Of a DNA stretch of 64,000 bases, positions 13,626 through 38,169 are shown piece by piece; within the stretch, counting starts at the first letter, position 1; every line of letters begins with the position of its first letter. The notes under the pieces were generated by a model. The model was not told the DNA's origin. It was given only the letters and a program-made list of their open reading frames with translations, and made no database searches. Source of the DNA: Bdellovibrionales bacterium. GTDB taxonomy: Bacteria > Bdellovibrionota > Bdellovibrionia > Bdellovibrionales > UBA1609. Location: NCBI GenBank assembly GCA_965200875.1, contig OZ241456.1, positions 782,588-846,587 of the forward strand, given 5' to 3'. A program made the position numbers and the translations under genes.

Positions 13626-13666
13626 ATAGTCGCCCGTGAAAACGGGAATCTTGTTGGTGGAGGAGG

Positions 13667-16189
13667 TTATGGGCTGTTGTCATGCAGATGGATCTGCTTG
13701 AGTAATTTCCTGATATTGCTGTTTTTTTTGGAGTTTGGTAATTCACTATTGTTTTTTGAACTGTGTGTTTCTTGGTTTTTGAAATGAGTCCTAGCATAAT
13801 TGCCAGATTGATTTTTGTGAATATACTGGCTGAGTTGTCTGTTGAGTTTTTGCAGACTGACGATTTGTTGTTGTTGTTGTTCCATTTTTGGTCCTTGGTT
13901 TTCCCAAAGGACTTTCAGTTTGTTATTATGTTGTCTGAGAGTTTTATTGTCCTCTCTGAGTTTTTGAAGCTCTTCTGTGTTAGTTGTGGATTCCAATTGC
14001 ATATTAATAATTTTGAGATTTTTCAGTTCTCTTTCAGACTGAAGTTCCAAGAGCACTTTTTGTAGACTTTGAATTTCATTATTATTTTTCTTATTTTCTG
14101 CAATAGATTTTCTTTTTTCAGCCAATAGCTCATTTTCCATTTCCACACGCAGATGGTGTATCTGATTATCATGTTCTTCCTTCAGCTCCATAATTCGCTC
14201 ATCCAGCTGAGAGGATTTTTCATAAAATTCATCATCTTGTTTTTCTTTCAGTGCTTTTAACTCCTGTTCCTGTTTTTCTTTAATACTGGAAGTAAGATTT
14301 TTATAATATTGCTCCATTTTGGCAAGAGTTGATTCTTTTTCGTTTATTAGACTTAATTTTTCTTTTTCAAAAATTTGATTGAGTTTCTTTTGAGTGTCTT
14401 GCTCATAATCCGCATAATTTTGACTCCAATTTTCCACTTCATTTTTCAGTTCGAAAATCACTTTTTCTTTTTCCATAATGAGTTTTTCATCTTTTGCTTT
14501 ATCCTCTTTTGATTTCTGTTCCTGTTCTCTTTGTATTTGTTCGATTCTTTGATTTTGTTCGTGTATCAGCTTTTGAGTATTCAACGCGTGTATACGACAC
14601 TGTTCCTCTTTTTCCTGTTTTAATTTTTCTACAATCTGTTTTTTTTCTTCTTTATGATTATTAGTGCTTTTTTCAAAATCTTTTGTGATTTTTTGGATTT
14701 CTTCTTCATACTCTCTTTTTGCGCTCAGTTCTTTGTTTTTAAAAATCTGGGCAAGATGATTTTTTTGCTCTTCATACTGGTCCGTCAATTTTTTTATTAT
14801 CTGGTTTTTTTTTCTGATAACCTTAGTGATTCTGTTGTGCCATTTTTCCTTTAATCTTTTGTACTTGCAGGATATTGTGTCAGCTTGGTTGGTAATTTGT
14901 TTTTGTTTTTCTTCATGTTCTTTTAATTCTTTCAGATGTTGTTTCTTTATTTTTCTTATATCCTGCTCCTGATTTTCTTTTAGTGTTTGTTCAGATTTTT
15001 CATATTTATCAGTGAGTTTTTGGATTTGTTTTGTATATTCTTTCTTTAAATCTTCTTTTTCTTTTGCGATATTGGTTATGTCGTGTTCATGCTTTTGTTT
15101 CACTTGTGATTCAGTTTTTTTGTTTTCAATACAGAGCTGATGAATTTTATTGAGATATTTTTGTGTCTCGGCTACATGGTTTTTTTGTAGTTCTTGTAGA
15201 GATTTTTTGTGTTTATCAGTGAGTTGTTGAGTTTCTTCTTGGTGTTTTTTTTCCATACTTTTGTGATTTTTTATCATCTGTAATTCTATTTTTTCATGCT
15301 TGGCTGTCATCTGTTGATTTTGTTTTTTTAAATGTTTTATCTGAGATAAATATTTTTTCTCATTAAAGTTCAGGGATTCTTTCAAATTTTGGATATCATC
15401 TTTATAATATTCGCTGAGGGATTTTTTAAAAGTTTCCAGTTCTGTTTTATGATATTTGTTTTGTTTTTTGTTTAATTGATTTAACTTGTTGATTTCCAGA
15501 GAGTATTTCTGACTTGTGGAATGAAATCGGATATGCTTCTCTTTTATCTGGCTGTTTTCTTTTAAAAGGGCTGTTAGTTTTCCCACTATATGACGATTCA
15601 AACCAAGTAAATGTTTTCTTTCTGTTTCCGAGATTTTTAGATTGTTTTTTATAGAGTCAAAAGTTTGTTTTAGTGCTGTTAACTCTTGTGAATTATGTTG
15701 CAGGGTTTGAATAAAACGGGAGTTATTTTGCAATATACTTTCATGTTTTTCTTTTAGAATCAGAAATTGATCCTGTAGAAAAATATTTTTATCCGAAAGT
15801 TGTTGGTTTAAAGTTGACATAGCGCGCGATTTTGACTCTATAAAAGAGTTTTTTCTTAATGTTGCGGAAAGATAACTCATCAGATCTTCATTTTCTTCTA
15901 AGTCTGTGCTTGATTTTTCCGTGGATTCTCGAATGGACTGGAATGATGAAATTTCTTTTGGTGATGTGTTTGGCGGTTTGGTTTTTAGAGTAGTTTCTAC
16001 CCTAGAAACAGATGTTTTTTGGTTTTTTGTGGAAGGTACAGGAATTTTTTCCACTTCCTCCCAGTTTGTGTCATCCTCAGACGGATGTCTTGGGTAATAA
16101 GAGTCCATTCTTTGCCCCTTTAGGTGTTTATCGTCTATGATTATGAAAATCTTTTCAGTGCTGTAAATATTTGTCAAAACAAAAGACAT
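13667..16189 (-). CDS. large K/E/Q-rich coiled-coil protein
   Basis: 840-aa uninterrupted ORF with almost wholly charged helical composition. The antisense ORFs are artefacts. Confidence 0.65.
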   Translation of the reverse strand: MSFVLTNIYSTEKIFIIIDDKHLKGQRMDSYYPRHPSEDDTNWEEVEKIPVPSTKNQKTSVSRVETTLKTKPPNTSPKEISSFQSIRESTEKSSTDLEENEDLMSYLSATLRKNSFIESKSRAMSTLNQQLSDKNIFLQDQFLILKEKHESILQNNSRFIQTLQHNSQELTALKQTFDSIKNNLKISETERKHLLGLNRHIVGKLTALLKENSQIKEKHIRFHSTSQKYSLEINKLNQLNKKQNKYHKTELETFKKSLSEYYKDDIQNLKESLNFNEKKYLSQIKHLKKQNQQMTAKHEKIELQMIKNHKSMEKKHQEETQQLTDKHKKSLQELQKNHVAETQKYLNKIHQLCIENKKTESQVKQKHEHDITNIAKEKEDLKKEYTKQIQKLTDKYEKSEQTLKENQEQDIRKIKKQHLKELKEHEEKQKQITNQADTISCKYKRLKEKWHNRITKVIRKKNQIIKKLTDQYEEQKNHLAQIFKNKELSAKREYEEEIQKITKDFEKSTNNHKEEKKQIVEKLKQEKEEQCRIHALNTQKLIHEQNQRIEQIQREQEQKSKEDKAKDEKLIMEKEKVIFELKNEVENWSQNYADYEQDTQKKLNQIFEKEKLSLINEKESTLAKMEQYYKNLTSSIKEKQEQELKALKEKQDDEFYEKSSQLDERIMELKEEHDNQIHHLRVEMENELLAEKRKSIAENKKNNNEIQSLQKVLLELQSERELKNLKIINMQLESTTNTEELQKLREDNKTLRQHNNKLKVLWENQGPKMEQQQQQIVSLQKLNRQLSQYIHKNQSGNYARTHFKNQETHSSKNNSELPNSKKNSNIRKLLKQIHLHDNSP

Positions 16190-16457: not shown

Positions 16458-16643
16458 CTGAATATTATTAGAGTGCTTGTGTTGTCTGTTTCGCTGGGGC
16501 GAAATAGGCGTATTTGCTTTTTTTTAGCAGATGAAATACAAGCATAAAGTAACTCACATTTTTATAAATTTGTTCTTAAATTTTTAGAGCAAAAAAGAGT
16601 CTGAACTGAAATCATTCTTAGCAATTTCAGTCAGTTTTATTTT

Positions 16644-19632
<2,989 letters not shown>

Positions 19633-19654
19633 AACATTTTTCTGACTGAACGCT

Positions 19655-19711
19655 GTCATTCCCACGAAAGCATTGTTTCCGTGAAAGCGGGGGCAGAGCG
19701 AGCGGGAATCC
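19655..19711. repeat. palindromic repeat copy (gtcattccc...cgggaatcc arms with about 40-nt filler) in the 23S-5S spacer
   Basis: The arms are read directly and belong to the same family as the copies at 26.7, 31.5, 33, 34, 37.7, 38.2, 40.1 and 49.1 kb. Confidence 0.7.
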
Positions 19712-19804
19712 AGTAGTTTTAACGGAGAGATCATTTAGGTTTCTCCGGTCTTTGTTACACAAGGATTTTTTAGCTAAGAATGTTTTGAGTTACAGATAAA
19801 ATCA

Positions 19805-19826
19805 TCATTCCCGCTTTGAGCGGGAA
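19805..19826. repeat. palindromic repeat copy (tcattcccgctttgagcgggaac) in the 23S-5S spacer
   Basis: Read directly from the sequence. Confidence 0.7.
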
Positions 19827-19842
19827 CTTGTAAAAAGGAGAT

Positions 19843-19958
19843 GCTGGTGTCAATAGCGACGGGGCCACACCTGTTCCCATCCCGAACACAGAAGTTAAGC
19901 CCGTCAGCGGCGATGGTACTTGAGGGTTGACCCTCTGGGAGAGTAGCACGATACCAGC
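19843..19958 (+). rRNA. rrf: 5S ribosomal RNA
   Basis: 116 nt. It contains the conserved ccgaacacagaagttaagc loop and has paired termini gctggtgt/ataccagc followed by a T-run. Confidence 0.9.
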
Positions 19959-20170
19959 TTTTTTTATTGATACTTTAGAATTTTAAAATAATCTAATTAA
20001 CGGCCCATGAAAAACTCTGATTTTAAGTATTCTGCATGCAAAATTTTAAGGCTTGTCCAAGACTTCCATGCGCTTTGCCTCTCTCCACTGTGGTTTTGTT
20101 CATTCCACAAGTAACGGGGTTTTTTACGAGCAACTGTAACAGAATAAATCATTGACTTATAAAAATATAT

Positions 20171-21415
20171 GTGGACATCATAAAAAATACCATGTTTACA
20201 ATAGATCTTACTTCTAAAACTTACTTTCCAAAATCCAAAAACAACCACCCGGATCAATTAAGTTTTTGTGGTTCAGATTTTTCGCCGGTTATTGTAACAG
20301 AAGGCATCAAATACAGTGGATCGAAGCTAAAGCTTTTACCTCACATTCTTTCTTTAATTAAAAGCTTGCCCGTGAAACAGGTGTTTGACGGGTTTGCAGG
20401 AACAACAAGAGTAAGTCAAGCTTTAGCAAAAAGTGGGTATCAGGTTATATCAAACGATATGGCTATTTGGTCAAAAGTTTTTGCAGAATGTTACTTAAAA
20501 GGAAGTGTTACAGATGAATTGCAGGAAAAAATAAACTATCTGAACAGTTTAAAAGGCCGTGAGGGCTGGTTTACAAAACACTATGGTGGGGAGGTTCAAG
20601 GTGGTTTAGCTGTGCAGTCTGATGGAAAGAAAAGGGTCTGGCAAATTCATAATACAAAAAAATTGGATAACATCCGTCCAGCGATAGACAAAATCGCAGA
20701 AAATCAAATTGAAAAATCCATTTTGCTCACAAGTCTTATTTTGGCTTTGGATAAGGTGGATAACACTTTGGGGCACTATGTTTCTTATTTAAGAAAGTGG
20801 TCGCCCCGTTCTTTTAATAAAATTCAACTTAAAATGCCTTTGATAGAAAAGAGCAAAGGCCCTCATCGGGTTATGAATGAGGATGTTTTTAAAGCACAGG
20901 CTAAAGTTAAACCAGATCTTTCTTATTTTGATCCCCCTTATGGTTCTAATAACGAAAAGATGCCTCCTTCCCGTGTTCGCTATGCTGGTTATTATCATAT
21001 TTGGAAAACAGTGATTTTAAATGATGCTCCAGATCTTTCAGGCAAAACAAATCGCAGGACAGATTGCAAAGACCTTACAACCAGTTCTTTATTTGAGGAA
21101 TTTCGTAAAGATAAGGAAGGCCGGTTTATAGCTCTTAAAGCTATTGAGAAGTTGATTAAAGAATGTCCGTCTCATTATATTTTGCTTTCTTACAGTAATG
21201 GGGGTCGAGCTACAAAAGAAGGTATCTTTGAAGTGATTCAGAATTACTGCTCTAAAGTGCAGATGTTTTCCATTGATTACAAGAGAAATGTTATGTCCAA
21301 TATGCGTTGGACAAATAATTGGATCAAAGAAAAAGAGGGGCAACATACAGAGTTTTTATTTTTAATGAAAAAAAAGGCAGAACATAGAAATGAAAAATCA
21401 GAAACATTATATTGA
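20171..21415 (+). CDS. D12-class N6-adenine DNA methyltransferase (solitary)
   Basis: Motifs YSGSKLKLLPHI, FDGFAGTTRV (motif I) and YFDPPYGS (motif IV) are present, with C-terminal LLSYSNGG. No adjacent nuclease. Confidence 0.7.
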   Translation: MDIIKNTMFTIDLTSKTYFPKSKNNHPDQLSFCGSDFSPVIVTEGIKYSGSKLKLLPHILSLIKSLPVKQVFDGFAGTTRVSQALAKSGYQVISNDMAIWSKVFAECYLKGSVTDELQEKINYLNSLKGREGWFTKHYGGEVQGGLAVQSDGKKRVWQIHNTKKLDNIRPAIDKIAENQIEKSILLTSLILALDKVDNTLGHYVSYLRKWSPRSFNKIQLKMPLIEKSKGPHRVMNEDVFKAQAKVKPDLSYFDPPYGSNNEKMPPSRVRYAGYYHIWKTVILNDAPDLSGKTNRRTDCKDLTTSSLFEEFRKDKEGRFIALKAIEKLIKECPSHYILLSYSNGGRATKEGIFEVIQNYCSKVQMFSIDYKRNVMSNMRWTNNWIKEKEGQHTEFLFLMKKKAEHRNEKSETLY

Positions 21416-21420: not shown

Positions 21421-21957
21421 TTACTGGCTATTGTTGTCCTCACAGTTAAATTTCTCTTCCCATTTCATTCTTAAAAATTCCGTGGGGAGAAGACGAAAAA
21501 GTTTACTTGCCTCGGAGTGGTTGTTCACAAAATATTGATTCTCTCCGATTTGCACCATAATATTTTGTATCGTTTTATTTTCAGTTTTTGTTTTTAAGAT
21601 GTTTTTCTGTATCATTTCTTGAATCTGAGTCTCTGTTTCTTCATTAAATCTATCTATTATATGAGCATTACATGGTTCTCTTTTCAAACTTAAATCTAGC
21701 TTGTATCCTTTAATGGCTATCCCTTGGTTACTGTAGGTGACAGTAAAGGATTTTAAGGGTGTGTTCACTGTAAAAATTTGACTGTTTGACGCAGGTAATG
21801 TGTTTTCTGTATTTTCTCTTTCTGCGTAATCCGCGACTTTTCGTTTTATATGTCGAAATTTTTGATCAGGTGATTTTTTAGTAGTTTTTTTGGAAACAGC
21901 TGGAACTCCTGCTCCCATAAGCACTACAAGCACAAACACATAAACACATAGTTTCAT
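21421..21957 (-). CDS. secreted protein of unknown function
   Basis: 178 aa with signal peptide MKLCVYVFVLVVLMGAGVPA. An SD aaggagga lies upstream. Confidence 0.55.
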   Translation of the reverse strand: MKLCVYVFVLVVLMGAGVPAVSKKTTKKSPDQKFRHIKRKVADYAERENTENTLPASNSQIFTVNTPLKSFTVTYSNQGIAIKGYKLDLSLKREPCNAHIIDRFNEETETQIQEMIQKNILKTKTENKTIQNIMVQIGENQYFVNNHSEASKLFRLLPTEFLRMKWEEKFNCEDNNSQ

Positions 21958-21976
21958 AATATCCTCCTTAGTTTAG

Positions 21977-22029
21977 ACAGCTGGAACTCCTGCTTCCACA
22001 AGCACATAGTTTCATAATATCCGCCTTAT
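21977..22029 (-). repeat. partial duplication of the RBS/start/signal-peptide region of the gene at 21421-21957
   Basis: acagctggaactcctgc..catagtttcataatatcc is repeated from 21896-21970. The copy encodes a 15-codon uORF, MKLCACGSRSSSCLN. Confidence 0.7.
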
Positions 22030-22133
22030 TTAGCTATATTACACTCTTTAGCTTTTTTTAACAAATATATTTCTCTGAAAAAAGCTATCTGATCACTTTT
22101 TTCTCCTACAAGGTGAGTGGTTTATCCATTAAA

Positions 22134-23069
22134 CTACTGAACACTGGGCATTGGAGTATTAAGGTCATTTTTTATTGCACCACCATATCCACTCGCACCA
22201 CCATCGGATCTATTCGTATTGTTTTTTTTGATTTCCACGCAAGGCTCAAAATTAATCTTGTCTTTGTTCATTTCAATCACCTGTTTACAGGCAGGAGAGA
22301 GCTTTTTCCCTTTATGGATAGCCTCCATTAAGACCCTCAGAAAGGTAGGTGGATGTTTTTTTGAGTTATCAAAAACAGTTAGATCTTTATATTGTATTGG
22401 TTCATTATTACGAACCCTTTTAGTTTCTAACAATGCACAATATGTTATATTTCCCGGTGAAGTGAAATAGGAAATTAAATCAGCCATTCCCTCTTCTGTT
22501 TGTCGTTTATCACCTGGATACCTACTTGATGTTGTCTCATCATCTGTATAACGATTTTGAACACATCGTCTTAACTCTATATCATATTTCATCTGACTTT
22601 CCCCACTCAGTCTAAAAGATGCCATCAGAAAACTAAGAACATGTGCTAATTCATGTGAAAAAATACTTTCTCCATACTCCTCATGAAACTGACAGCTGAA
22701 AAAAGATATGCTCACCGTTGGCTGTTGTTTGTTCTCCGATGTAAAGTATGATACTTTATCAGATATTTGAAACATACGAAAAAAATGGCAGACATTAATA
22801 AAAGGTAGCTCGTAACTTTCGACAACCTCCTTCCCTTCCAATTTTTTTTGGATGAATGTTTTAGGCTCTTCAGGAAAATCAAATTCTATTTGCTCTACAT
22901 AGTCATTGAATCGAGATCTGGATAGTTGGCTGTATTCCGAAAAAACATTGTTCATAAATTGCTCTATGTATTGATTTTTGTTTTCTTTAAAATCCTTTAC
23001 TTTATCATAAAGTAAACTATCCGTAACAAACTGAGCTTTACACCTGTTTAAGCTTCGGCGTATCTGCAT
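22134..23069 (-). CDS. putative zinc metalloprotease domain (HExxH), lacks its own signal peptide and RBS
   Basis: 311 aa with the HELAH motif in IFSHELAHVLSF. The frame stays open upstream as far as the poly-C tract at 23140-23154. Confidence 0.6.
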   Translation of the reverse strand: MQIRRSLNRCKAQFVTDSLLYDKVKDFKENKNQYIEQFMNNVFSEYSQLSRSRFNDYVEQIEFDFPEEPKTFIQKKLEGKEVVESYELPFINVCHFFRMFQISDKVSYFTSENKQQPTVSISFFSCQFHEEYGESIFSHELAHVLSFLMASFRLSGESQMKYDIELRRCVQNRYTDDETTSSRYPGDKRQTEEGMADLISYFTSPGNITYCALLETKRVRNNEPIQYKDLTVFDNSKKHPPTFLRVLMEAIHKGKKLSPACKQVIEMNKDKINFEPCVEIKKNNTNRSDGGASGYGGAIKNDLNTPMPSVQ

Positions 23070-23118
23070 GGTGGAATTATTTAAAGCGTTTTCCCATTTA
23101 TCCTTAATAGAGTTTAGG

Positions 23119-23625
23119 TCATCTAGTGTTTGTGGATCCGGGGGGGGGGGGGGGACCGTTTTGCTCCAAATTATTCAATCGAGCGATTTTCTGCTTAGTG
23201 TTTTCAAGCAATAACTCTCCATTTTTCTTGCGCTCTTCCATAGTTTTTACAATAGAAGGCTGGATGTCAGTTTGAAACTCCTCATACAGTGTATTCAATT
23301 TCTGTTCATCCACATTATCAAAATCAATATTAGTAATAGACGACTTTCTTCTTGAAATATGATCTTCAGGAAGGCCACACAGATCAATAGCGCATTGTTC
23401 AAGTGTACCTTCCATATCTTCCATACCTTCTGTGCACTTGGCTTGGCATATTTCTTCAGTAGGACTATAGTTTGGGAATGAAGGATCATTTGCCTGTTCC
23501 ACAGCTCGAACAATGCCAAGAATATCATTCTCTGATAAAGTTACAGGCACTCCGGAAACTTCAGGTGCTATGTATAAAGAGATTGTCCATAAAATCACGC
23601 TGATTAAACAAAATCTTTTGTTCAT
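23119..23625 (-). CDS. secreted protein, probable N-terminal part of a frameshift-split metalloprotease
   Basis: Signal peptide MNKRFCLISVILWTISLYIAPEVSG (the tracked ORF extends to 23703). It ends 12 codons after a C15 tract that encodes PPPPP. Confidence 0.55.
   Translation of the reverse strand: MNKRFCLISVILWTISLYIAPEVSGVPVTLSENDILGIVRAVEQANDPSFPNYSPTEEICQAKCTEGMEDMEGTLEQCAIDLCGLPEDHISRRKSSITNIDFDNVDEQKLNTLYEEFQTDIQPSIVKTMEERKKNGELLLENTKQKIARLNNLEQNGPPPPPGSTNTR
23140..23154. repeat. homopolymer G15 (C15 in the sense of the minus-strand gene)
   Basis: Counted directly from the sequence. Confidence 0.95.
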
Positions 23626-24004
23626 ACAGATGAAAATCCAAGTTGTTAGCTGTTTAGTCCTGCAAAAGCAGGGGTCTTGCTGGGTTTTAGGGAAATGTAT
23701 CATCCTTTTTCCTTAAGCAAACATACTTTATCACTTTGCACTATGGCTTGTGCAAAAGTTCTGGTAAACAGGTTACTTGCCTGTTAAGGAGAAAGGTCTC
23801 CCTTGGAAACTAAAGGGTCAAGTTACCTACTTTTCAGTTCCGTACAGGCGAGAATCTAGTCAACATAACATATTTTTCATAAGAGGGTAACCAGACTCAT
23901 GAAAGGTTAGTCATCCATATTTTCTATTATCAAAAAAACATCCTAGCCAAAATTATTGAAATCCAGGATCAAAAAATAACTTTTTAGATCATTTTAACTG
24001 GTTG

Positions 24005-24112: not shown

Positions 24113-24301
24113 TTTTAATAAAGAAAATACGGTCAGCATGTATGTTTTATAGAGTATTCCCTGTTTTTAAGAAATTTTTAAAAAATTAATTACACACACA
24201 CAATAACAATAAGTTAAAATGCAGAGCAGAAAGGTAAATGGTGATATGTTTCAAAATGTTTTTTTTAAAAATAGTTTTTCAAAGAACAATAAATTTGTTT
24301 A

Positions 24302-24317
24302 CCCCCCCCCCCCCCCC
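24302..24317. repeat. homopolymer C16
   Basis: Counted directly from the sequence. Confidence 0.95.
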
Positions 24318-24514
24318 TTCTTTGGTCTTATCAGAGTTTAATTTTTATCTTTAACACTTTCTTTCTCAAATTCCACTTCAGCTTTTTTTGCTTTGTTTTT
24401 AGTATTGTTAGTTTAATCTTTTTCCAAAAATCTTATGCCAATCCTGTTTCTGGTTTAGCCACGCCGGCTATTGATAAAAGCACAGAAGAACAACAAGAAA
24501 AAACTGCTAAGGGC

Positions 24515-25219
24515 TTGATAATTGCTTTTAAGGTGTGGCCTTTGAGTGAGACAGATAAAAGTGCACTTTTAAAGAAAACCAAAGCTCTGGGTCTTGAAGA
24601 AAAATTTTTCTACTCACGATTTAAAACTTATGTATTTGAGTGGGAGGGGTGGCGTGAAAAAAAACAAGCTTTAAGAGCCTGCGAAACTTTTTTGAATTTT
24701 CCAGGGCTGGATTACTGCGAACCAAATTTTTTACAAAAGCCTCCTAATAAAAATGATTTTTTGACAGATACAACAGAACCTAAGTCAGATATAAAGCTTA
24801 ATCCTCAGGAGACTTTTTCTGATACAGAGTCAGGAAATATTCGCTCCTGTAAAATTATTTCATCTGAATTAAATTTGATTAAAGGTAGATTATCAGATTA
24901 TTGGGCACAGGAAATGATTGGCTCTGATTTAATGAGAGAGAAACTTAAACTTTTGCCCCCTGTAAAAAAACACCTTGTTGCGGTATTTGATACCCCTACC
25001 TCAAAACGACATGATATAGGTTCTACAAATATTATTTCACATGAGGGAAAACAGGCCGTCTTGCCCCCCATAGGTAACAGTATTACCAATTTTGATGTAA
25101 CTCTCTCAGAGCACAGCTTAGGGCATAGTGACTATCTGTTGGAAACCGCTGAAAACAGATGTAAACACCTAAAGTCCAAAAAACCGGCAAGCCCTCCTAG
25201 TCAAAGAGCAGTAAGATGA
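24515..25219 (+). CDS. N-terminal portion of a subtilase-like locus, with the 5-prime end disrupted at the C16 tract
   Basis: The frame is open from 24293 and encodes a hydrophobic signal-like segment (FHFSFFCFVFSIVSLIFFQKSYA) before the tracked TTG start. VAVFDT resembles the S8 catalytic Asp motif. Confidence 0.5.
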   Translation: MIIAFKVWPLSETDKSALLKKTKALGLEEKFFYSRFKTYVFEWEGWREKKQALRACETFLNFPGLDYCEPNFLQKPPNKNDFLTDTTEPKSDIKLNPQETFSDTESGNIRSCKIISSELNLIKGRLSDYWAQEMIGSDLMREKLKLLPPVKKHLVAVFDTPTSKRHDIGSTNIISHEGKQAVLPPIGNSITNFDVTLSEHSLGHSDYLLETAENRCKHLKSKKPASPPSQRAVR

Positions 25220-26643
25220 TTAAAGCTTTAAAGTTAAATTTACGAGTTTTATTAATAATGTTATTTATGGTGGCAAGCACTTTACCAGAAAGAGCTGAAT
25301 CAGGATTTCTTTTCAAACGGAAGAAACGCCCACCAAGAGTTAACACAAAACCAATTAAAAGAGTTAATACAAAAAATCCCCCTATGAAATCACCTCCCAT
25401 AAAAACCCCCTCTAAGTCATCTATAGTGGCTGACTCAAGTCCTTATAAGCAGTGCCGGGCTACTGTTCTACCCTCCTTTATTAATCATTCTCAGTATACA
25501 AATAAGACCAGAAATCGTTCTTTAAAAGCACTTTCACCGCCTTCCATTGTTGTTAGTTCTGCCGGAAATTTTGCCCCTAAACCTATCTCTGATACAGCTA
25601 TAGAAATTAGTAAGGATGTTAACGCAATTTTAGTAGGTTCTTTGTCCACAGGAGGGACACCAAGTTCATTTTCCCAGAAGGGAGAAGAGGTGCATATTAT
25701 GGCCCCTTCTGGTCACTTTCTCACTTCAGCCACTAGCACAGGTCATTATCGAAAATATGGTGGTACTAGTGGAGCTGCGCCTTTGGTAACAGGAAGTTTG
25801 GCTGGATTTGAGTGGATAGCAGGTTATCACCCCACAGCGGCGGAGGCTAAAATTTTATTGTTAAAAACAGCTATTCACATGAAGGGTATTACAAAAGGAC
25901 ATGGTGTTGGTATGGTCAATGCCTATAAATTAGCTATGGTGGCAGAAAAATTAAAAAAAGCTTGTGGAAAAAATATATCCTGTTTTAAAGATAAAATAAA
26001 ACAAGACGATACTTATAGGTTTCCAGAAGACGAAGCTGTGAGTGAAGCCTTGGATAAAGCTTTTCCTTCTTGTTCTTCCACCTGCACAGAAGAGGATTTA
26101 AAATCTACTCCTTCCTGTGCGGAAAAAGCTAATGCCCTTAAGGAATTTAGAAAACAAGTTTTTTTAAACCCTCAGAATAAAAACCTTTGGAAAAAACTAG
26201 CCTGTGTTTATGCCGAAGGGGGTTTTGAAGAAAATAGTCGATTTTCACAGAGTGTCTATACAGATACAGTAGATCGTGGTAGTGATGGTAAAGATTGCAA
26301 GAAAGATGCAGACTGTTTTTTAGTACCAGCTTGTTTTGGAAATGCTAATGGTTTAATTGCTAAGCCACGCTCTTTTAAGGATAGTCATTATATTCTCTGT
26401 ATGGAACTGAACGGCAAAATACCTCTTTGTAATGGCAAATGTCGATGTGATTCCAAAGAAAAAGTATCATCTTCTTCTGCCGAAGCTGGACATGTCGCCA
26501 CTGCGTCTTGTGTAGATTCTAGGTGTATTATAACGAAAGAGTATGGTCCCCCTCCTCCTTTACCACCAGGAAGTGGTGAAATACCCCCCCCAGAAAGTGG
26601 TGGTCTTCCCGGTAGTAGTGAAAAATCTGGTGCTGTTAAATAG
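25216..26643 (+). CDS. S8 (subtilisin) family peptidase, C-terminal half plus Cys-rich and Pro-rich tail
   Basis: SSAGN (oxyanion Asn) and IMAPSG...YGGTSGAAPLVTGSLAG (catalytic Ser) are present. No Asp or His motif is seen. The start overlaps the upstream stop as ATGA. Confidence 0.7.
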   Translation: MIKALKLNLRVLLIMLFMVASTLPERAESGFLFKRKKRPPRVNTKPIKRVNTKNPPMKSPPIKTPSKSSIVADSSPYKQCRATVLPSFINHSQYTNKTRNRSLKALSPPSIVVSSAGNFAPKPISDTAIEISKDVNAILVGSLSTGGTPSSFSQKGEEVHIMAPSGHFLTSATSTGHYRKYGGTSGAAPLVTGSLAGFEWIAGYHPTAAEAKILLLKTAIHMKGITKGHGVGMVNAYKLAMVAEKLKKACGKNISCFKDKIKQDDTYRFPEDEAVSEALDKAFPSCSSTCTEEDLKSTPSCAEKANALKEFRKQVFLNPQNKNLWKKLACVYAEGGFEENSRFSQSVYTDTVDRGSDGKDCKKDADCFLVPACFGNANGLIAKPRSFKDSHYILCMELNGKIPLCNGKCRCDSKEKVSSSSAEAGHVATASCVDSRCIITKEYGPPPPLPPGSGEIPPPESGGLPGSSEKSGAVK

Positions 26644-26904: not shown

Positions 26905-27192
26905 TTACTTTTCTTTGGCATTCTTGGTTTTTGAAGTTTTTCCATTTTTATTTGTTTTAACCTTGAGTGTTGGCATGTGATGAGGTTTGAGAAGTGGAAG
27001 AACCACTGGGGATAAACGCATTCGTTGGCTCATGTTGGTAATAAATTCTCTTAAATAAGGGTATATATTAAAATAAGCATTTTCAGTTCCAAAATACTTA
27101 ACAGCTTTTTTATTTAACTTTATATCATTAACCTCGGTGTTTTGAGTTGTTTTGATGAAAAACACTGTCGGAAACTTTATTTCTGCTTCCAA
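26905..27192 (-). CDS. SecB-like chaperone fragment
   Basis: NIYPYLREFITNMSQRMRLSPVVLPLL parallels E. coli SecB [28 protein letters not shown] (recalled from memory). Only about 95 aa, with a TTG start, so it is N-terminally short. Confidence 0.4.
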   Translation of the reverse strand: MEAEIKFPTVFFIKTTQNTEVNDIKLNKKAVKYFGTENAYFNIYPYLREFITNMSQRMRLSPVVLPLLKPHHMPTLKVKTNKNGKTSKTKNAKEK

Positions 27193-27484
27193 TTATGCGG
27201 GTGTGGAAGTCTACTTCCATATTCAAGTGAAAGCAAACGCGTGCAAAAGTTCTTAAAGTCAGATTGTGACCATCTGACAGCAATTCTGTTACATGAGCTT
27301 TTGACTGGTTTAAAGATCTGGCCAGATTTGTTCTGGTGGTGTTGCTGTTCTGCATGAGTTCAGCAATTTTTTCCTGGGCTTTCAGTATAGCCAGCTCTTC
27401 ATAGAAAACAGGGCTGTTTCTAAATGTTTCAGTGCTTTTAGGATAGGATGATTGTTTATTTTTGGTATTTTGATTTTTTTTCAT
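27128..27484 (-). CDS. XRE-family HTH protein (HigA-like antitoxin)
   Basis: TRTNLARSLNQSKAHVTELLSDGHNLTLRTFARVCFHLNMEVDFH fits the XRE HTH pattern. It overlaps the SecB-like ORF by 65 nt in another frame. Confidence 0.6.
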   Translation of the reverse strand: MKKNQNTKNKQSSYPKSTETFRNSPVFYEELAILKAQEKIAELMQNSNTTRTNLARSLNQSKAHVTELLSDGHNLTLRTFARVCFHLNMEVDFHTRIIGSRNKVSDSVFHQNNSKHRG

Positions 27485-27636
27485 TTTATTCTCCTTCGGT
27501 TACTTTTGTATTTTTTATATATATTTAAATAGCTTGTAAAAAACCTGCGACTTGTTGTCAGTCCTTGTCGGCAGGAATCCTCTATGAAAAAAGTCATTAA
27601 GAGCTTTCATTTTTTTGAAATCAGGAAGTAACAATA

Positions 27637-27777
27637 TTACTTCAATATATTATCACTCTCATATTCTCTCACGGTTTTGCAAAGTTTCGTTGTTTTTTCA
27701 ATTTCGTTTTTAGGCCATTTATTTTGTTTCTTCTTGAATCCATCCAATAAGCAGATACATTCTTTACTCAGAAGTAA
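27637..27777 (-). pseudogene. C-terminal remnant of a Gp49/HigB-like (RelE superfamily) toxin
   Basis: The stop-to-stop frame reads LLLSKECICLLDGFKKKQNKWPKNEIEKTTKLCKTVREYESDNILK. This resembles the ...LLHGFIKKTQKTPKKEIE.A... tail of Gp49-like toxins. There is no ATG start and the N-terminus is missing. Confidence 0.4.
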
Positions 27778-27911
27778 TCAAGGTAAAAAACATCAAGTGT
27801 CAAGTGTTTACTTGCTAAAAAAAATATCTAATTTGTTATATTTATAGCGTTTTATATAGAAAAAACTTGACTTTTAAGCGATTATTGGATTTTATAGCCC
27901 GTGGAGGATGA

Positions 27912-29756
27912 GTGTCTGACAAATTATCATACAAATTATTGAAGATACGGCAAAATTTATCACTTTCTCAGGAGGAACTGGCAGAAGAGTTGGGCGTTTC
28001 TTTTGCTACAGTAAATCGGTGGGAAAACGGTCATTCCACTCCAAGAAGGGTTATAATGGAGACTATCCATAATCTATATAAAAGAGCACAGGAGGTGGAA
28101 ACACAGATGCTTGAATCTGAAGATCAAAAACCAAAAAAAGATGTTGTGCGGAGAAAAAGCCGAGGAGGTGGCCCGGGAACAGGTATTCTGGATAGTAGTT
28201 CTATGGAACAAATGCTTTGGAAAGTTGCCTGCGGAATTAGGGGTGAAAAAGACGCTCCAAAGTTTAAAAATTATCTTCTTCCCCTGTTATTTATCAAGCG
28301 ACTTTCTGATGTATTTGATGACGAGATTAATCGGCTTACGCAAAAGTTTGGCAGTCGCGAAAAAGCTTTAAAAATGCTGGAGCTGGATCCTTCTCTGGTT
28401 CGTTTTTACCTTTCGCCGGAGGCCAGATGGTCTGTTGTCAGTGGGCAGACTGACTTTAAATGGCCAAGAGAAAATAAACCTCGTTCTTTGGGAGAGCAAT
28501 TAACTTTAACTATGAGGGTTATTGTGAAAGACAACCCGGAGTTAAGGGGTGTTATTGATACTGAAGATTATAACGAAAGCAGAGGAGGGGAGCGGGAGAT
28601 AAGTGATTCTGCTTTAAGGAAAGTTATTGAAATTTTCTCCAATCCTAAATATCGTTTAGGGCTTAACGATGTGGAGCCTGATTTTTTAGGTCGAGCCTAC
28701 GAGTATCTTTTAAGGAAGTTTGCTGAAGGGCAGGGGCAAAGCTCAGGAGAGTTTTTTACTCCGCGTGAAGTGGGCTTTATTATGGCTAAAATTATGCAAC
28801 CCTTTGGAGGGGAAACTGCGTATGACTGCGCCTGCGGTTCTTTTGGCCTGTTGATAAAGCTTCAGCTTGTGTTAAGACAAACCAACCCTTTAAATAAAAT
28901 CCCTTTGCATTTGAGTGGTCAGGAGCTTAACGGCTCCAGTTTTGCCATTGCCTGTATGAACAGAATTATCCACGATATAGAAGGAAAAGTGAAGAGAGGC
29001 GACTCCATGCAAAACCCTAAGTTCAAAGACTCTACTGGCAGATTAAAAAAGTTCGATATTATTGTGGCCAATCCCATGTGGAATCAGCCCTTCAACAATT
29101 CTGTTTATGAAAACGATCCTTTTAATCGCTTTGAGTCCCAAGGTGGCATTACTTCTGGCAAAGCAGACTGGGCATGGCTTCAACACATACTGGCTTGTCT
29201 TAAAGAAAAAACAGGACGGGCAGGGGTGGTGCTGGATACTGGAGCAGTTACTCGAGGGAGTGGAAGTCAACACGAAGACAAGGAGAAAAAAATCAGAAAA
29301 TGGTTTGTGGATAATGACTTTATTGAAGGTGTGATACTTTTACCAGAAAATCTTTTTTACAATACCTCTTCAGCCGGCATTATTGTTTTTCTGAACAAAA
29401 ACAAACTGGAAGAAAGAAAAAATAAAATTATTTTATTAAATGCCAGTCAGGAATTTTACAAAGGAAAACCCAAGAATCATATTTCAGAGGAAGGGATTAA
29501 AAAAATAGCCACCGCCTTTATTAAAGGTGAAGAGGTGGATCGTTTTGTGAAGGTTATCACAAAAGAGTCCGTAAAGAAGAATGATTACAACCTCTCTCCT
29601 TCCCGATATATCAGTCTTTCGGAGGAAGCAGTGTATCGCCCCATCCCTCAAATTTTATCTGACTTAAACATGATCCAAAAATCAGCGGATAAAGTGGATC
29701 GGGATTTAGCTATGATTTTCCAAAAATTAAAGCCTAAACTTAAGGTGCAAAATTAG
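27912..29756 (+). CDS. hsdM: type I R-M methyltransferase subunit HsdM with N-terminal XRE-type HTH
   Basis: The HsdM_N motif LWKVACGIRGEKDAPKFKNYLLPLLFIKRLSDVF is present. Motif I is YDCACGSFGLL and motif IV is IVANPMWNQPF. The N-terminus LSQEELAEELGVSFATVNRWENG is an HTH. GGAGGA lies upstream of the GTG start. Confidence 0.88.
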   Translation: MSDKLSYKLLKIRQNLSLSQEELAEELGVSFATVNRWENGHSTPRRVIMETIHNLYKRAQEVETQMLESEDQKPKKDVVRRKSRGGGPGTGILDSSSMEQMLWKVACGIRGEKDAPKFKNYLLPLLFIKRLSDVFDDEINRLTQKFGSREKALKMLELDPSLVRFYLSPEARWSVVSGQTDFKWPRENKPRSLGEQLTLTMRVIVKDNPELRGVIDTEDYNESRGGEREISDSALRKVIEIFSNPKYRLGLNDVEPDFLGRAYEYLLRKFAEGQGQSSGEFFTPREVGFIMAKIMQPFGGETAYDCACGSFGLLIKLQLVLRQTNPLNKIPLHLSGQELNGSSFAIACMNRIIHDIEGKVKRGDSMQNPKFKDSTGRLKKFDIIVANPMWNQPFNNSVYENDPFNRFESQGGITSGKADWAWLQHILACLKEKTGRAGVVLDTGAVTRGSGSQHEDKEKKIRKWFVDNDFIEGVILLPENLFYNTSSAGIIVFLNKNKLEERKNKIILLNASQEFYKGKPKNHISEEGIKKIATAFIKGEEVDRFVKVITKESVKKNDYNLSPSRYISLSEEAVYRPIPQILSDLNMIQKSADKVDRDLAMIFQKLKPKLKVQN

Positions 29757-29844
29757 ATGTTTGAAAAAAATTTTGCTATATTCAGTCCAAAACATAAACC
29801 AGCGCGAAAAAAAATCAAACCAAGGAGAAGAATGAAAAAAGGAG

Positions 29845-31500
29845 GTGAAAGTGGGCACACCACAGTCACAAAGAAAGCAAAAGCGTTTTCGCATAACTGA
29901 TAAAAAAATCAATAACCTGCTATTAATGGGGGAAGGGTATCGCATAGAGTTTAAACAATCTCTTGATAAGTCTCTTCTTGAAGAGGTTTGTGCTTTTGCC
30001 AATTCATCAGGTGGTTATATTTTAATAGGAGTGGCAGATGATAAAACCATTAAAGGAGTGAACATAAGCCATCGGCAACTTTCTCAAATCCAGGATATGT
30101 TGATCCGTTTACAACCTAAGTTGGATATCATTGTTACAGCCAAGAAAAACCTTATTGTTATTTGTGTTCCTGAAGGTTCTGAAAAACCTTATAGTTCTCC
30201 AAGGGGATTTTTTATGAGAGTGGGGGCAAATTCTCAAAAAATGACTAGGGATGAAATTATTGGTTTTTTTAAAAAAGAGGGTCGGATCCATTTTGAAGAG
30301 TTAATCAATGAAAAAGCAACCTTTGAAAAGGATTTTGATCCACAGGCTTTTAAAAAATTTTTAAAACTATCAGGGATCAACCCAACAATTAAACAGGAAA
30401 CTCTTTTACAAAATCTTGATTGTTTGACACCAGATAACAATCTTACAAACTTAGGGGTTTTGTTTTTTGCCAAGGACCTAGATTTCATTATGAATCATGC
30501 TCTTGTGGATTGTATTTTGTTTCGAGGTGTAAATAAAGTAAAGATTTTAGATAGAAAGCAATACAAAGGAAATATTATTGAAAATATTGAAAGTGCTTTG
30601 GCTTTTGTGCAAAGACATACAAATACAGAGTATGTGATTACAGGTAAACCCCAAAGGGAGGAAATTGCTGATTACCCTGAAACTGCTTTAAGGGAAGCTA
30701 TTGTCAATGCTGTTTGCCATAGAGATTATTTTGAAAAACGTTGCCATGTAGTTGTGGAAGTATTTTCTAACAGAGTGAAAATTGACAATCCGGGTGGTTT
30801 GCCAAGTGGGCTTAATCCAAAACAATTTGGAACAAAAAGTGTGCCACGAAATCTTTTTATTGCCTCAATGCTTCATAGAGCAAATTACATAGAACAAGCC
30901 GGAACAGGAATAAACCGCATAAAAGAAGCACTTGCTAATCATAAAAAGAAAGTGATTCTTGATATTCAATATAGTAAAGCCAGTACTTTTTACACTGTTG
31001 TTTTTAGAAAGAAAGCACTTACCAGCACTACCCAGAAACCGGCATTAGGCACTACCCAGAAAAGGTTATCCGGCACTACCCAGAAACCGGCATTAGGCAC
31101 TACCCAGAAAAGGTTATCCGGCACTACCCAGAAACCGGCATTAGGCACTACCCAGAAAAGGTTATCCGGCACTACCCAGAAACCGATATCAGGCACTACC
31201 CAGAAAAGGTTATCCGGTACTACCCAGAAAAGGTTATCCGGCACTACCCAGAAACCGGCATTAGGCACTACCCAGAAAAGGTTATCCGGTACTACCCAGA
31301 AACCGATATCAGGCACTACCCAGAAAATTTTGAATTTAATAAATAAAAACCCTGTTATCACTAGGCAAGAACTGGCGGAACAAATCGGCAACATTAGTGT
31401 AGATGGTATTAAGTACCATTTGGAACAGCTAAAAAAGAAAGGTTTTTTGAAAAGAATTGGTCCTGCTAAAGGTGGTCATTGGAAGGTTCTTAAAAAATGA
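29845..31500 (+). CDS. AlbA_2 (Schlafen-like) / HATPase_c_4 / wHTH protein with internal 8-aa tandem repeats
   Basis: Motifs EGYRIEFKQS...FANSSGGYILIGV and REAIVNAVCHRDY...VKIDNPGGLP are present. The C-terminus ITRQELAEQIGNISVDGIKYHLEQLKKKGFLKR is a wHTH. Confidence 0.75.
   Translation: MKVGTPQSQRKQKRFRITDKKINNLLLMGEGYRIEFKQSLDKSLLEEVCAFANSSGGYILIGVADDKTIKGVNISHRQLSQIQDMLIRLQPKLDIIVTAKKNLIVICVPEGSEKPYSSPRGFFMRVGANSQKMTRDEIIGFFKKEGRIHFEELINEKATFEKDFDPQAFKKFLKLSGINPTIKQETLLQNLDCLTPDNNLTNLGVLFFAKDLDFIMNHALVDCILFRGVNKVKILDRKQYKGNIIENIESALAFVQRHTNTEYVITGKPQREEIADYPETALREAIVNAVCHRDYFEKRCHVVVEVFSNRVKIDNPGGLPSGLNPKQFGTKSVPRNLFIASMLHRANYIEQAGTGINRIKEALANHKKKVILDIQYSKASTFYTVVFRKKALTSTTQKPALGTTQKRLSGTTQKPALGTTQKRLSGTTQKPALGTTQKRLSGTTQKPISGTTQKRLSGTTQKRLSGTTQKPALGTTQKRLSGTTQKPISGTTQKILNLINKNPVITRQELAEQIGNISVDGIKYHLEQLKKKGFLKRIGPAKGGHWKVLKK
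31024..31326 (+). repeat. about 12.5 x 24-bp tandem repeat (actacccagaaaccggcattaggc / actacccagaaaaggttatccggc, encodes GTTQK(PAL/RLS/PIS))
   Basis: Read directly. The repeat is in frame inside the AlbA_2 gene. Confidence 0.9.
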
Positions 31501-31514
31501 AACGAGCAGTTAGA

Positions 31515-31717
31515 CACGATGTCATTCCCGCCTTGAGCGGGAATCCCGCACTTAAACGGGAAGCCAAATCGTTGTCTTCCTGTCCCTTGCGATCGAGAAT
31601 CCAGCAACAGTTTTCATTTTGTTACGATGTCATTCCCGCCTTGAGCGGGAATCCCGCACTTAAACAGGAAGATAAATTGTTATCTTCCTGTCCCTTGCGG
31701 TCGAGAAGACAATCATC
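31515..31717 (+). repeat. two tandem copies (about 100-109 bp) of a compound palindromic element
   Basis: cgatgtcattcccgccttgagcgggaatcccgcacttaaac(g/a)ggaag...ttgtcttcctgtcccttgcg is repeated. The tracked ORF 31497-31745 is its translation artefact. Confidence 0.85.
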
Positions 31718-31887
31718 TAAAAATAGAAAGGAGATGTTAAAATGAGTGTAAACAAATGTGTTATATGGGGTACTTTACTAAAAACAGAACTGAAAAATTA
31801 AAAACTATCAAAGTATTATCTATTGATAAAAAGGATCAAGGAAATAACTTGTATAAAAATTCAAACAAATAAATAAAGGAGGCAAAC

Positions 31888-32331
31888 ATGAGTGAGCAAA
31901 ATAAAAAAGAAAGTGAAATCAATACGGATTTCTTAGATCGCTGTATTCGAGCTTTGGAAATTTCATACAATAAACTGCAAAAACTGTCCCCGGAAAATAT
32001 TGAATATGACATTTATCGCTCTGCTTGTGTTAAAGAGTTTGAAATTATTTTGGAGCAATGCGGGAAGTTGTTAAAAAAACGCCTGAGAGATTTTTTTCAT
32101 TCCAATAAAGCTGTTGATGATTTGGTATTTAAGGATCTTTTTCGTTACTCAGCAAAACATGGTTTGATGGATATTAAGAGCAGTGAACGCTGGTGTAAAT
32201 ATAGAGATAACAGAAATAACACAGCTCATGATTATGGAGTGGGTTTTGCCGAAGAAACTTTAAAAGCTCTATCCCCATTTATAACTGACGCGAAAGCCAT
32301 TGTTGATATTTTGAAAAAGAAAGAGACATAA
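31888..32331 (+). CDS. HEPN-domain protein (nucleotidyltransferase substrate-binding, HI0074-like)
   Basis: 147 aa, helical, with an R-x4-H motif (RNNTAHDYG). It lies directly upstream of an MNT-domain ORF. Confidence 0.7.
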   Translation: MSEQNKKESEINTDFLDRCIRALEISYNKLQKLSPENIEYDIYRSACVKEFEIILEQCGKLLKKRLRDFFHSNKAVDDLVFKDLFRYSAKHGLMDIKSSERWCKYRDNRNNTAHDYGVGFAEETLKALSPFITDAKAIVDILKKKET

Positions 32332-32425
32332 ATATAGGGTCGTGAAAAACTTGGTTAAACATTGTTTATTTTTCTAAAAAATAAACCGCTTTAATAAGTA
32401 AACATAAAAAATCAGTTTTGCTGAT

Positions 32426-34306: not shown

Positions 34307-34327
34307 ATAAAGAATAAAAAGGACACT

Positions 34328-35392
34328 ATGTTTAATATCGATCAGCAAATCTCATTAAGAACGGAATTAACTCCTCGTATATTGCCGAGAACCCAATATT
34401 TGGGAAGCAAACAGAAATTGGTAAAATGGATATACCAATGCTCTCCTAAAAATATAAAAACAGTTTTTGACGCATTTAGTGGCACATCTGCTGTAGGATA
34501 TCATTTTAAAACCCAAGGAAAAAAAGTTATAGCCAATGATTTTCTAAAGTTTAATTACCATATTGGAAAAGCCCTTATTGAAAATAAAAATATCATCTTG
34601 ACGAATAAAGATATTAAGTTGTTGTTGCAAAATAATAAAACCTCTGACTTCTTTATTGAAGAAAACTTTACTGGAGTATTTTTTGAAAAAGAACAGGCTC
34701 AATTTTTAGATAATTTTAGAGCCAATATTGATCTCTTAAATAATCAATATAAAAAATCTTTGGCTTTTACAATTATTAATAGAGCTTTAACAAAGAAGGT
34801 TTTGTTGGGCCATTTTGCACATTTAAAAGCTCTGGACTACAGCAAAAATCTTAAGCGTATTAAAAGAAACCCGGCTATTACTCGACCCATAAAAGATCTA
34901 TTTCTGGATCTGGTAAATGATTATAATCATGCGGTGTTTGATAATAAGCAACAAAACAAAATGTACTGTCAGGATATAATTGGTTTTATCAGGAATATAA
35001 AAGGTGTGGACTTGGTATATTTTGATCCTCCTTATTATGGCTGTCATCCAGATTATCAGGCTTTTTATCATTTCCTAGAAACTTATGTTGAGTACTGGAA
35101 AGAAAAACAATTTATTAATAAAACGAAACAATATTTCCCTAAGAAGAAAAGTGGCTTTACACAAAAAAATGAAATAGTGGAGTCATTTAAAAAACTATTT
35201 GAGAACAGTCAGGATATTCCATATTGGCTGATTTCTTACAATAGTAATAGCTACCCTGATAAAGAGACTATGACGAATATAATACAGCAATATAGAAAAA
35301 CTAAAGTTTTTGAAAATGAATATCAAAATCATTACGGAGGCAAAGGCTCTCGCAAAGGTACACGAGAATATTTGTTTTTATGTTATGAGTAA
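34328..35392 (+). CDS. D12-class N6-adenine DNA methyltransferase
   Basis: Motifs YLGSKQKLVKWI, FDAFSGTSAVG and YFDPPYYG are present, with C-terminal WLISYNSNS. It is a paralogue of the gene at 20171-21415. Confidence 0.7.
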   Translation: MFNIDQQISLRTELTPRILPRTQYLGSKQKLVKWIYQCSPKNIKTVFDAFSGTSAVGYHFKTQGKKVIANDFLKFNYHIGKALIENKNIILTNKDIKLLLQNNKTSDFFIEENFTGVFFEKEQAQFLDNFRANIDLLNNQYKKSLAFTIINRALTKKVLLGHFAHLKALDYSKNLKRIKRNPAITRPIKDLFLDLVNDYNHAVFDNKQQNKMYCQDIIGFIRNIKGVDLVYFDPPYYGCHPDYQAFYHFLETYVEYWKEKQFINKTKQYFPKKKSGFTQKNEIVESFKKLFENSQDIPYWLISYNSNSYPDKETMTNIIQQYRKTKVFENEYQNHYGGKGSRKGTREYLFLCYE

Positions 35393-35454
35393 AAATAAAG
35401 AGCAAGAACATTTGGATATACTTGTGAAATAAAAATATAAAACAAAAGGAGAGT

Positions 35455-37446: not shown

Positions 37447-37619
37447 GAAATTTCAACTGAAAATTTTTCATATATGACTTTAAGAAATCAGATTATTGCC
37501 ACAATGGCTATAGACAGTTACAAGCCTGAAGGGATGAAAAAGATTATTCAACAAATAAAAAATGCTTAATGTTGAGGGTTTTTGTATTAAAATTTTATCA
37601 GGATATGTGCGGGCTTATG

Positions 37620-38156: not shown

Positions 38157-38169
38157 TGTTTATATGTAT

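Follow-up and report, generated by a model that had tools for sequence, protein, structure and literature searches.

A secreted metalloprotease-like gene split by a poly-C tract in a Bdellovibrionales bacterium: a probable case of slipped-strand phase variation

The window analyzed here is a stretch of 64,000 nucleotides of contig OZ241456.1 from a Bdellovibrionales bacterium, in which a run of fifteen cytosines interrupts a minus-strand gene at 22134-23703. As judged from relatives and from the DNA at the junction, the two open reading frames (ORFs) met on this strand, 23119-23703 and 22134-23069, make up a single gene of about 522 amino acids (aa), whose product is predicted to be exported and to carry a zincin-type domain. 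Slipped-strand phase variation is the best explanation of the interruption: this one exported zincin-type gene is probably switched ON and OFF by slippage of the poly-C run, and together with a divergent subtilase-like gene that bears a tract of its own, the locus would be a pair of protease contingency genes. The parts of the split gene are as follows.

22134-23703, minus strand: whole reconstructed gene, 522 aa at C14 and 523 aa at C17, predicted secreted zincin-like protein.
23119-23703, minus strand: upstream ORF as assembled, 194 aa, with a putative signal peptide, a QCAIDLCG cysteine motif and a long helix at residues 133-182.
23140-23154, minus strand: C15 homopolymer, coding for a PPPPP loop; ON at lengths of 3n+2 (11, 14 or 17).
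23070-23138, minus strand: bridge from the tract to the ATG at 23069, DPQTLDDLNSIKDKWENALNNST; 23 codons, stop-free, read in the ON frame only.
22134-23069, minus strand: downstream ORF as assembled, 311 aa in the -1 frame, with a catalytic-type domain.

The run at 23140-23154 is G15 on the plus strand and exactly C15 in the sense of the gene. Read from the ATG at 23703, the 194-aa ORF passes through LEQNG, PPPPP and GSTNTR to its C-terminus (NGPPPPPGSTNTR), with the stop seven codons past the prolines. When the tract length was varied in silico, C13, C15 and C16 gave products of 192-194 aa, C14 gave 522 aa and C17 gave 523 aa, and at every length other than 3n+2 a stop was met 5-7 codons past the tract. 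A single-base change of length flips the product between full-length and truncated, and the ON frame is the frame of the orthologues. The ON-frame junction peptide is NGPPPPPDPQTLDDLNSIK, and the bridge aligns with DPETMKYLNEVKEGIEERLSNPI of the relative P0003. The downstream ORF is poorly equipped to be expressed as a secreted protein of its own: no Shine-Dalgarno-like purine run is present in the 22 bases 5' of the ATG at 23069 (AAACGCTTTAAATAATTCCACC), and its maximal 12-residue Kyte-Doolittle value is 0.43, without a hydrophobic N-terminus, as against 2.37 in the upstream ORF, where the ATG at 23703 is preceded by AAGGAAAAAGG. An earlier sequence-only reading of this DNA had described the C15 tract with its five prolines and the stop seven codons on, the fusion of both ORFs by 14 or 17 cytosines, the stop-free bridge of 23 codons, and a downstream ORF that has neither a signal peptide nor a Shine-Dalgarno sequence; the sequence and the ORF list bear out each of these statements.

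That reading had also argued for one gene of about 520 aa split at the homopolymer, and here the relatives carry the case. The fused sequence was searched against 5.8 billion proteins, and two relatives were found to span the junction, namely P0002 (475 aa, 54% identity, 85% of the query) and P0003 (412 aa, 44% identity). An intact single ORF of 564 aa is present in OZ241967.1 (L003), a Bdellovibrionales bacterium metagenome-assembled genome (MAG); no other relative was found among GTDB species representatives. With the fused protein as query, tblastn gave one alignment each in L001 (residues 44-508) and in L003 (residues 36-501). The junction DNA reads AAT GGA TAT CCT CCG GAT CCA GAA in the related locus L002, AAT GGA TAT CCT CTG GAT CCA GAA in L003, and AAC GGT [C15] GGA TCC ACA in the window. 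With 14 cytosines the window would read GGT CCC CCC CCC CCC CCG GAT CCA CAA, by which the ancestral CCG GAT CCA is restored exactly, and the ON lengths are thus 3n+2. The Y-P-P of relatives then corresponds to P-P-P-P-P in the window. PPPPP occurs in one of 152 family members, the window protein, and the tract is absent from the other 151.

The gene order downstream is conserved as well, since in L003 the 564-aa ORF is followed by a homologue of the next ORF of the window:

21421-21957, minus strand: downstream ORF of 178 aa with a signal-like N-terminus; homologues follow the gene in L002 and L003 (synteny).

Between this ORF and the split gene, at 21958-22030 on the minus strand, lies a partial tandem duplicate of its ribosome-binding site and first codons, so that GGATATTATGAAACTATGTG occurs twice. 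A strain that is 96% identical at the 178-aa ORF is represented by two short contigs, L006 and L007 (ENA ERZ23495567 and ERZ23495629; 744 and 718 bp; samples SAMN12290600 and SAMN12290826), both of which end before the gene; in L006 the first 28 bases align at the duplicate, apart from the main alignment.

The predicted structure places the break in the same light. Modeled with AlphaFold2 from a 60-sequence alignment, the fused protein reached a mean predicted local distance difference test (pLDDT) score of 81.6 and a predicted template-modelling (pTM) score of 0.74. In this model a helix at residues 133-182 is followed by a loop at 183-189 (PPPPPDP) and a helix at 190-208, the two helices stemming from different ORFs, and the pLDDT means of ten-residue blocks exceed 90 over residues 131-290. 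As confidently predicted helices stand on either side of the prolines, the break would fall inside one helical unit and not between domains. The single ORFs and alignments of relatives, the conserved CCG GAT CCA frame and the modeled loop agree on one gene. Furthermore, all 15 columns that are invariant in the 60-member alignment, including HExxH, EExxAD and four cysteines, are kept in the window sequence, and the tract is the sole interruption in either half; the gene is therefore not visibly decaying.

Two observations on split genes among the relatives are recorded here on their own account. Splitting at homopolymers does not look recurrent in the family, as far as P0039 (L004), a member with the C-terminal part only, can tell: it has a separate upstream ORF but no homopolymer. 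In L002, genes at 693-3480 and 3939-5418 are in pieces, the 2-oxoglutarate dehydrogenase being spread over four ORFs and the HExxH gene over ORFs of 412 aa and 85 aa, while the L003 counterpart is intact. The broken genes of L002 probably reflect indel error of that assembly, and split genes in these MAGs are probably not all biological.

The family to which the fused protein belongs is large and unnamed. A profile search of 1.84 billion cluster representatives returned 486 relatives at E <=1e-3, of which 128 were at <=1e-30, and most are single ORFs of 580-690 aa. In the 60-sequence alignment the invariant residues are H350, E351 and H354, then E403, E404, A407 and D408, and Cys221, 305, 380 and 422; an N-terminal QCAxDLCG is conserved in the consensus. 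The corresponding features of the window protein are these.

23551-23625, minus strand: probable Sec signal peptide MNKRFCLISVILWTISLYIAPEVSG, residues 27-51 when numbering starts at the ATG at 23703, hydrophobicity 2.37.
22641-22655, minus strand: HELAH (H350, E351 and H354 in fused-protein numbering), without variation in alignments of 60 and of 68 sequences, in a model helix at 340-361.
22479-22499, minus strand: TEEGMAD (E403, E404, A407 and D408 invariant), candidate helix for the third zinc ligand, in a model helix at 402-414.

The TEEGMAD motif is presumably comparable to GENIAD of neprilysin. As in M13 neprilysin and PepO and in MA-clan gluzincins, HExxH lies on a predicted helix and the invariant EExxAD on a later one; unlike M13 enzymes, the window protein is much smaller and has an all-helical N-terminal half with its own cysteine motif. 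The N-terminus is equally hydrophobic in 86 of the 125 full-length family members, signal peptides having been judged by hydrophobicity and by eye, and the conserved cysteines fit an oxidizing compartment. The earlier description of the protein as secreted is supported by this hydrophobic N-terminus and by the cysteines.

Curated models gave little guidance. The window protein has no above-threshold match in Pfam and no match above threshold in NCBIfam, and a PDB sequence profile search gave no match to any solved structure. Two of the relatives gave sub-threshold Pfam matches, to Peptidase_M13 (E 1.3e-3, 18.8 bits where the cutoff is 24.5) and to Peptidase_MA_2 (E 4.8e-3). A match to the clostridial neurotoxin translocation domain (Pfam, E 0.012) was dismissed as noise from the helical region. 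A separate model of the 311-aa ORF reached pLDDT 84.4 and pTM 0.83, and Foldseek comparison of both models with the PDB returned neprilysin, ECE-1, PepO and H-gal-GP first, then anthrax lethal factor, MATCAP and aminopeptidase N, all of them zincins, at weak scores (E 0.07-0.3, probability <=0.94, query-normalized TM-score 0.27-0.43). The nearest folds of the predicted models are thus, weakly but consistently, neprilysin-type (M13) zincins. Altogether, the protein looks exported and disulfide-containing, with an active site like that of gluzincins; it is probably a metallopeptidase, not demonstrably a member of M13 or of any other named family. Of the earlier claim of an HExxH metalloprotease domain, the HELAH of the downstream ORF was found where it had been read, the motifs proved invariant and the nearest folds are zincins; the absence of a curated family model and the weak structural E-values leave the name of the domain less firm.

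The tract itself stands far outside the composition of its surroundings. The G+C content of the window is 36.5%, and about 1e-6 runs of C or G of at least 15 would be expected in it from base composition. The run lengths of the window tail off gradually, G runs reaching 5 and C runs 8, after which come two outliers, 15 and 16. Given that expectation, C15 and C16 are not a product of composition. CCC is moreover a minor proline codon here (93 of 607 in long ORFs). The C15 run lies inside an ORF and is longer than the G/C run of about 8 that is taken as hypermutable.

The second outlier, a C16 run that the sequence-only reading of this gene leaves unmentioned, lies 600 bp upstream of the start of the metalloprotease-like gene; the 64 kb hold no third long G/C run. 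The two tracts are at most 1.2 kb apart, in two divergent genes for predicted proteases with putative signal peptides. The parts of the second gene are as follows.

24302-24317, plus strand: C16 tract, 3' of the start codon (24219 or 24246) and 5' of the signal-peptide core; out of frame, ON at C14 or C17.
24219-25219, plus strand: N-terminal part of the subtilase-like gene, with leader, tract, predicted signal peptide ...FFQKSYA/NP, prodomain-like region and Asp motif VAVFD; assembled as ORFs of 40 aa and 234 aa.
25216-26643, plus strand: C-terminal part of the subtilase-like gene, 475 aa, with Peptidase_S8 at positions 144-277 and the motifs SAGN and GTSGAAP; its ATG overlaps the preceding stop (ATGA).

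Either the ATG at 24219 or the in-frame ATG at 24246, which has AAAGG and GGTGAT just 5' of it, opens the 40-aa ORF that ends shortly past the tract. With C14 or C17, reading would go on through LLWSYQSLIFIFNTFFLKFHFSFFCFVFSIVSLIFFQKSYA/NPVSG... to the 234-aa ORF at 24515-25219. In the downstream frame no ATG, GTG or TTG is present from the preceding stop to 24515, so the signal-peptide core can be translated only through the tract. The 475-aa ORF opens with a signal-like stretch of its own, MIKALKLNLRVLLIMLFMVASTLPERAES, and a paralogue in the same genome, P0155 (503 aa, 64% identical), has the same start MIKALKLNLR; because P0155 starts alike, the division of the subtilase into two ORFs looks like a feature of the lineage and not like fresh decay. 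In an alignment of eight subtilase sequences, no conserved His was seen at the expected catalytic position.

The closest full-length subtilase homologue, P0154 (818 aa, about 50% identity), starts with MKNLLRNCRKLLKSLGKITPPPPPPPLPALRHK...FFQKAYA/NPL and comes from an 18-kb locus, L005 (ENA ERZ25070167, ctg390890_4.89x_l). In its DNA, at L005:10056-10079, a run of C24 occupies the equivalent N-terminal position and is in frame. Two further tracts were found in the same 18 kb, C21 at 4482-4502 and C16 at 13729-13744, and all three lie inside one cassette of the form ...AAGAAATCCTTGTAAACTATTGAAATTAyTArGGATTTTCA-Cn-GCACTGCGTCATAAG. This cassette of about 75 nt comprises a start codon, MKNLL..CKLLK.L..T, the poly-C run (Pn) and ALRHK, and it precedes three unrelated genes (copies at L005:4330-4600, 9900-10180 and 13580-13850); only the C24 copy is in frame, the other two being out of frame. 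Behind it, each with its native signal sequence, follow the genes of the subtilase, of a protein that weakly matches Peptidase_S74 and of a protein of 336 aa. No match to the cassette was found when JGI metagenome contigs were scanned, the window holds chance-level matches only, and the leader of the window subtilase has no DNA-level homology to it.

No G/C run longer than 8 is present in L001, L002, L003 and L008 (52 kb in total), by which the tracts are specific to the organisms of the window and of L005. Two tracts in the window and three in L005, in exported-protein genes, were thus found in the 64 kb and 18 kb covered. On the contigs compared, long poly-C near the 5' ends of exported-protein genes recurs in these two organisms and not in the wider group. 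The subtilase tract, common to both at different lengths (C16 in the window and C24 in L005), is, as far as the two assembled copies tell, the comparative signature of contingency loci. It is conceivable, though doubtful, that the lineage runs a repertoire of poly-C switches on secreted hydrolases and that the L005 leader is a modular, transferable phase-variation cassette.

For the window gene, the following course of events is proposed. A proline-rich loop of the ancestor, Y-P-P-D-P in relatives, would have expanded into a poly-C run of about 15, which would slip at replication and yield a population mix of lengths. Cells with a length of 3n+2 (14 or 17) would make the full secreted enzyme of 522 or 523 aa and be ON; at other lengths a fragment of 192-194 aa would be made that lacks its packing-partner helices, and the catalytic half would be left without a ribosome-binding site or an export signal, the OFF state being presumably null. 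The divergent subtilase would be switched independently through its C16 run, where loss of frame would abolish export and everything downstream. Length heterogeneity in vivo, reversibility, protease activity and any selective value are inferred.

A measure of the instability to be expected comes from Campylobacter jejuni, where mutation rates of 1e-4 to 1.6e-3 per division are known for G/C tracts of 8-11 bases, deletions being favored above G11 (PMC8355987). Given such rates at G8-G11, a run of 15 bases should be no more stable. As to the quality of the window assembly, 41 of 56 shorter homopolymers lie inside intact frames of at least 200 aa. The sequence-only reading had left phase variation and a miscalled homopolymer side by side; the neighboring C16 and the C24 of L005 tip the balance towards a hypermutable switch.

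Several points weigh against switching. The length of the tract is known from one assembled consensus only, and the OFF state as called may be wrong by one base. Homopolymers of 15-16 bases are among the worst-called sequences in long-read consensus. Each half is the sole member of its protein cluster, a junction-centred protein search matched only the window's own two ORFs, and a scan of JGI metagenome contigs for the tract-flank pattern gave no match. The assembly has both tracts in the OFF state and the genome is small (1.83 Mb), which fits early gene loss too. The tract of the metalloprotease-like gene is present in no relative and gives no evolutionary sign that a switch is maintained, and this C15 lies in the middle of the gene, not at its 5' end.

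Of the competing explanations, a consensus miscall is the main rival, pseudogenization ranks lower and a rescue at the level of decoding lowest. If the consensus were miscalled, the true tract would be C14 (or C17), the gene would be intact in essentially all cells and no meaningful switching would occur. This is rather improbable, even though a one-base change gives back a perfectly conserved frame and runs of such length are, as is generally known, error-prone on long-read platforms. The name form of the L005 contig (ctg..._4.89x_l), read as that of a low-coverage long-read metagenome assembly, and the many broken genes of L002, of the kind typical of indel errors, lean in the same direction. 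Against it, the shorter homopolymers of the window are free of indel noise, and the smallest corrections are opposite in sign, C15 needing one base fewer and C16 one base more, which is a misfit with a one-directional calling bias. Moreover, a G/C run of 14-17 bases is intrinsically unstable, so that an intact and stable gene is physically unlikely when G8-G11 already switch (PMC8355987). Since a miscall would still leave a hypermutable tract, it would change the phase that is called and not the nature of the locus.

Gene decay, in which the metalloprotease-like gene and its subtilase neighbor are being lost from a reduced genome through a fixed, inactivating frameshift, is less probable still. 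Both tracts are indeed out of frame as assembled, the genome is small (1,831,459 bp), the subtilase is further divided into two ORFs, and the tract is lineage-specific. Yet no second lesion is found: both halves are open, every residue invariant in the family is kept, and the bridge is stop-free and homologous to that of relatives. The split of the subtilase is shared with the paralogue of the same genome that has the MIKALKLNLR start, and the tract of the subtilase orthologue is in frame at the same place. Furthermore, a frameshift in a 15-base run reverts readily and would hence not be fixed as the word is usually meant. Least of all is to be expected from decoding-level rescue, by which DNA stably at C15 would yield a fixed ratio of short to long product through RNA-polymerase slippage or ribosomal frameshifting on CCC: a run of proline codons would stall ribosomes, and long homopolymers promote transcriptional slippage, which rescues frameshifted genes in some endosymbionts, but relatives have a plain single ORF with no conserved two-frame arrangement, slippery site or homopolymer at the site, and such rescue is no rival to slippage at the DNA level, which must occur too.

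The surroundings of the protease pair were also recorded. Promoter and terminator scans around the locus gave nothing above shuffled controls. Genes of DNA-modification and defence type flank the pair (20171-21415 and about 27100-40000, plus strand): a D12-class adenine methyltransferase, an HTH-HsdM type I methylase, a Schlafen/AlbA_2 gene, an HsdS-nucleotidyltransferase fusion and two AAA_15/AAA_21 ATPases. The 23S and 5S ribosomal RNA (rRNA) genes are at 16642-19959 on the plus strand, and no 16S gene is present in the 16.6 kb of window upstream. The protease genes and the defence-type block, just downstream of the rRNA genes, look like a variable island. The sole transfer RNA (tRNA) gene of the window, Ile-GAT at 6865-6941 on the minus strand, is 10 kb from the 23S and 5S genes and on the other strand. 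Ile-GAT is usually located in the 16S-23S spacer, and unlinked rRNA genes are often found in reduced or host-associated genomes; the rRNA arrangement here is unlinked. Two large ORFs, 13667-16189 (minus strand, 840 aa) and 45456-49118 (plus strand, 1220 aa), have no Pfam or NCBIfam match.

Phase variation of this kind, the preferred reading of the locus, has well-known counterparts. The poly-G/C loci of Campylobacter jejuni, Helicobacter, Neisseria and Haemophilus likewise have an intragenic G/C homopolymer well past the mutability threshold, a one-base toggle, exported or surface-related products, clustering of loci and over-representation against a low-GC background. At 15-16 bases here, and 16-24 in the relative, the tracts exceed the G8-G11 typical of C. 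jejuni (PMC8355987). Unlike in Campylobacter-type loci, the host is an uncultured Bdellovibrionales-like bacterium and not a vertebrate mucosal pathogen, and the loci are known from sequence alone. The targets differ too, being secreted proteases here, and surface glycan enzymes, adhesins and restriction-modification genes in the known poly-G/C loci.

Two other systems resemble the two tracts by position. Repeats within signal-peptide coding regions are known in Neisseria opa (CTCTT) and in outer-membrane protein genes of Helicobacter pylori (CT); in the same manner, the window subtilase and its L005 orthologue carry a repeat behind the start codon and ahead of the signal-peptide core. Unlike those repeats, theirs is a homopolymer, not a penta- or dinucleotide, and the L005 cassette is common to three unrelated genes. 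In Chlamydia pneumoniae, mid-gene poly-G splits the exported-protein genes of the pmp group in assemblies, which was first read as sequencing error or phase variation. The pmp proteins are of an unrelated family, and for them length variation between isolates is documented, as against the one assembled length of the present tract. In the literature searched, no report was found of simple-sequence phase variation of own genes in Bdellovibrio-like bacteria, and none on the sample accessions. The mechanism is thus a known one, and what is new is the host lineage, the targets (secreted proteases, one of them of an unnamed family) and the shared leader cassette of the relative.

For annotation, the two deposited "hypothetical proteins" are best merged as a single gene whose entry mentions the tract, and the same check is advisable for every G/C run of at least 9 in this and related assemblies. 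For the organism, random switching would, if the length of the tract truly varies, affect at least two secreted proteases, a form of bet-hedging as in Campylobacter, Neisseria and Haemophilus. The interaction of a small-genome Bdellovibrio-like organism with its prey or host would then seem to be under the same fluctuating selection, that of arms races over receptors, immunity and resistance, and the unnamed HExxH family, with its 486 representatives and no curated model, would be a likely effector. Should the cassette reading be true as well, the attack or host-interaction arsenal of these bacteria would be subject to stochastic diversification.

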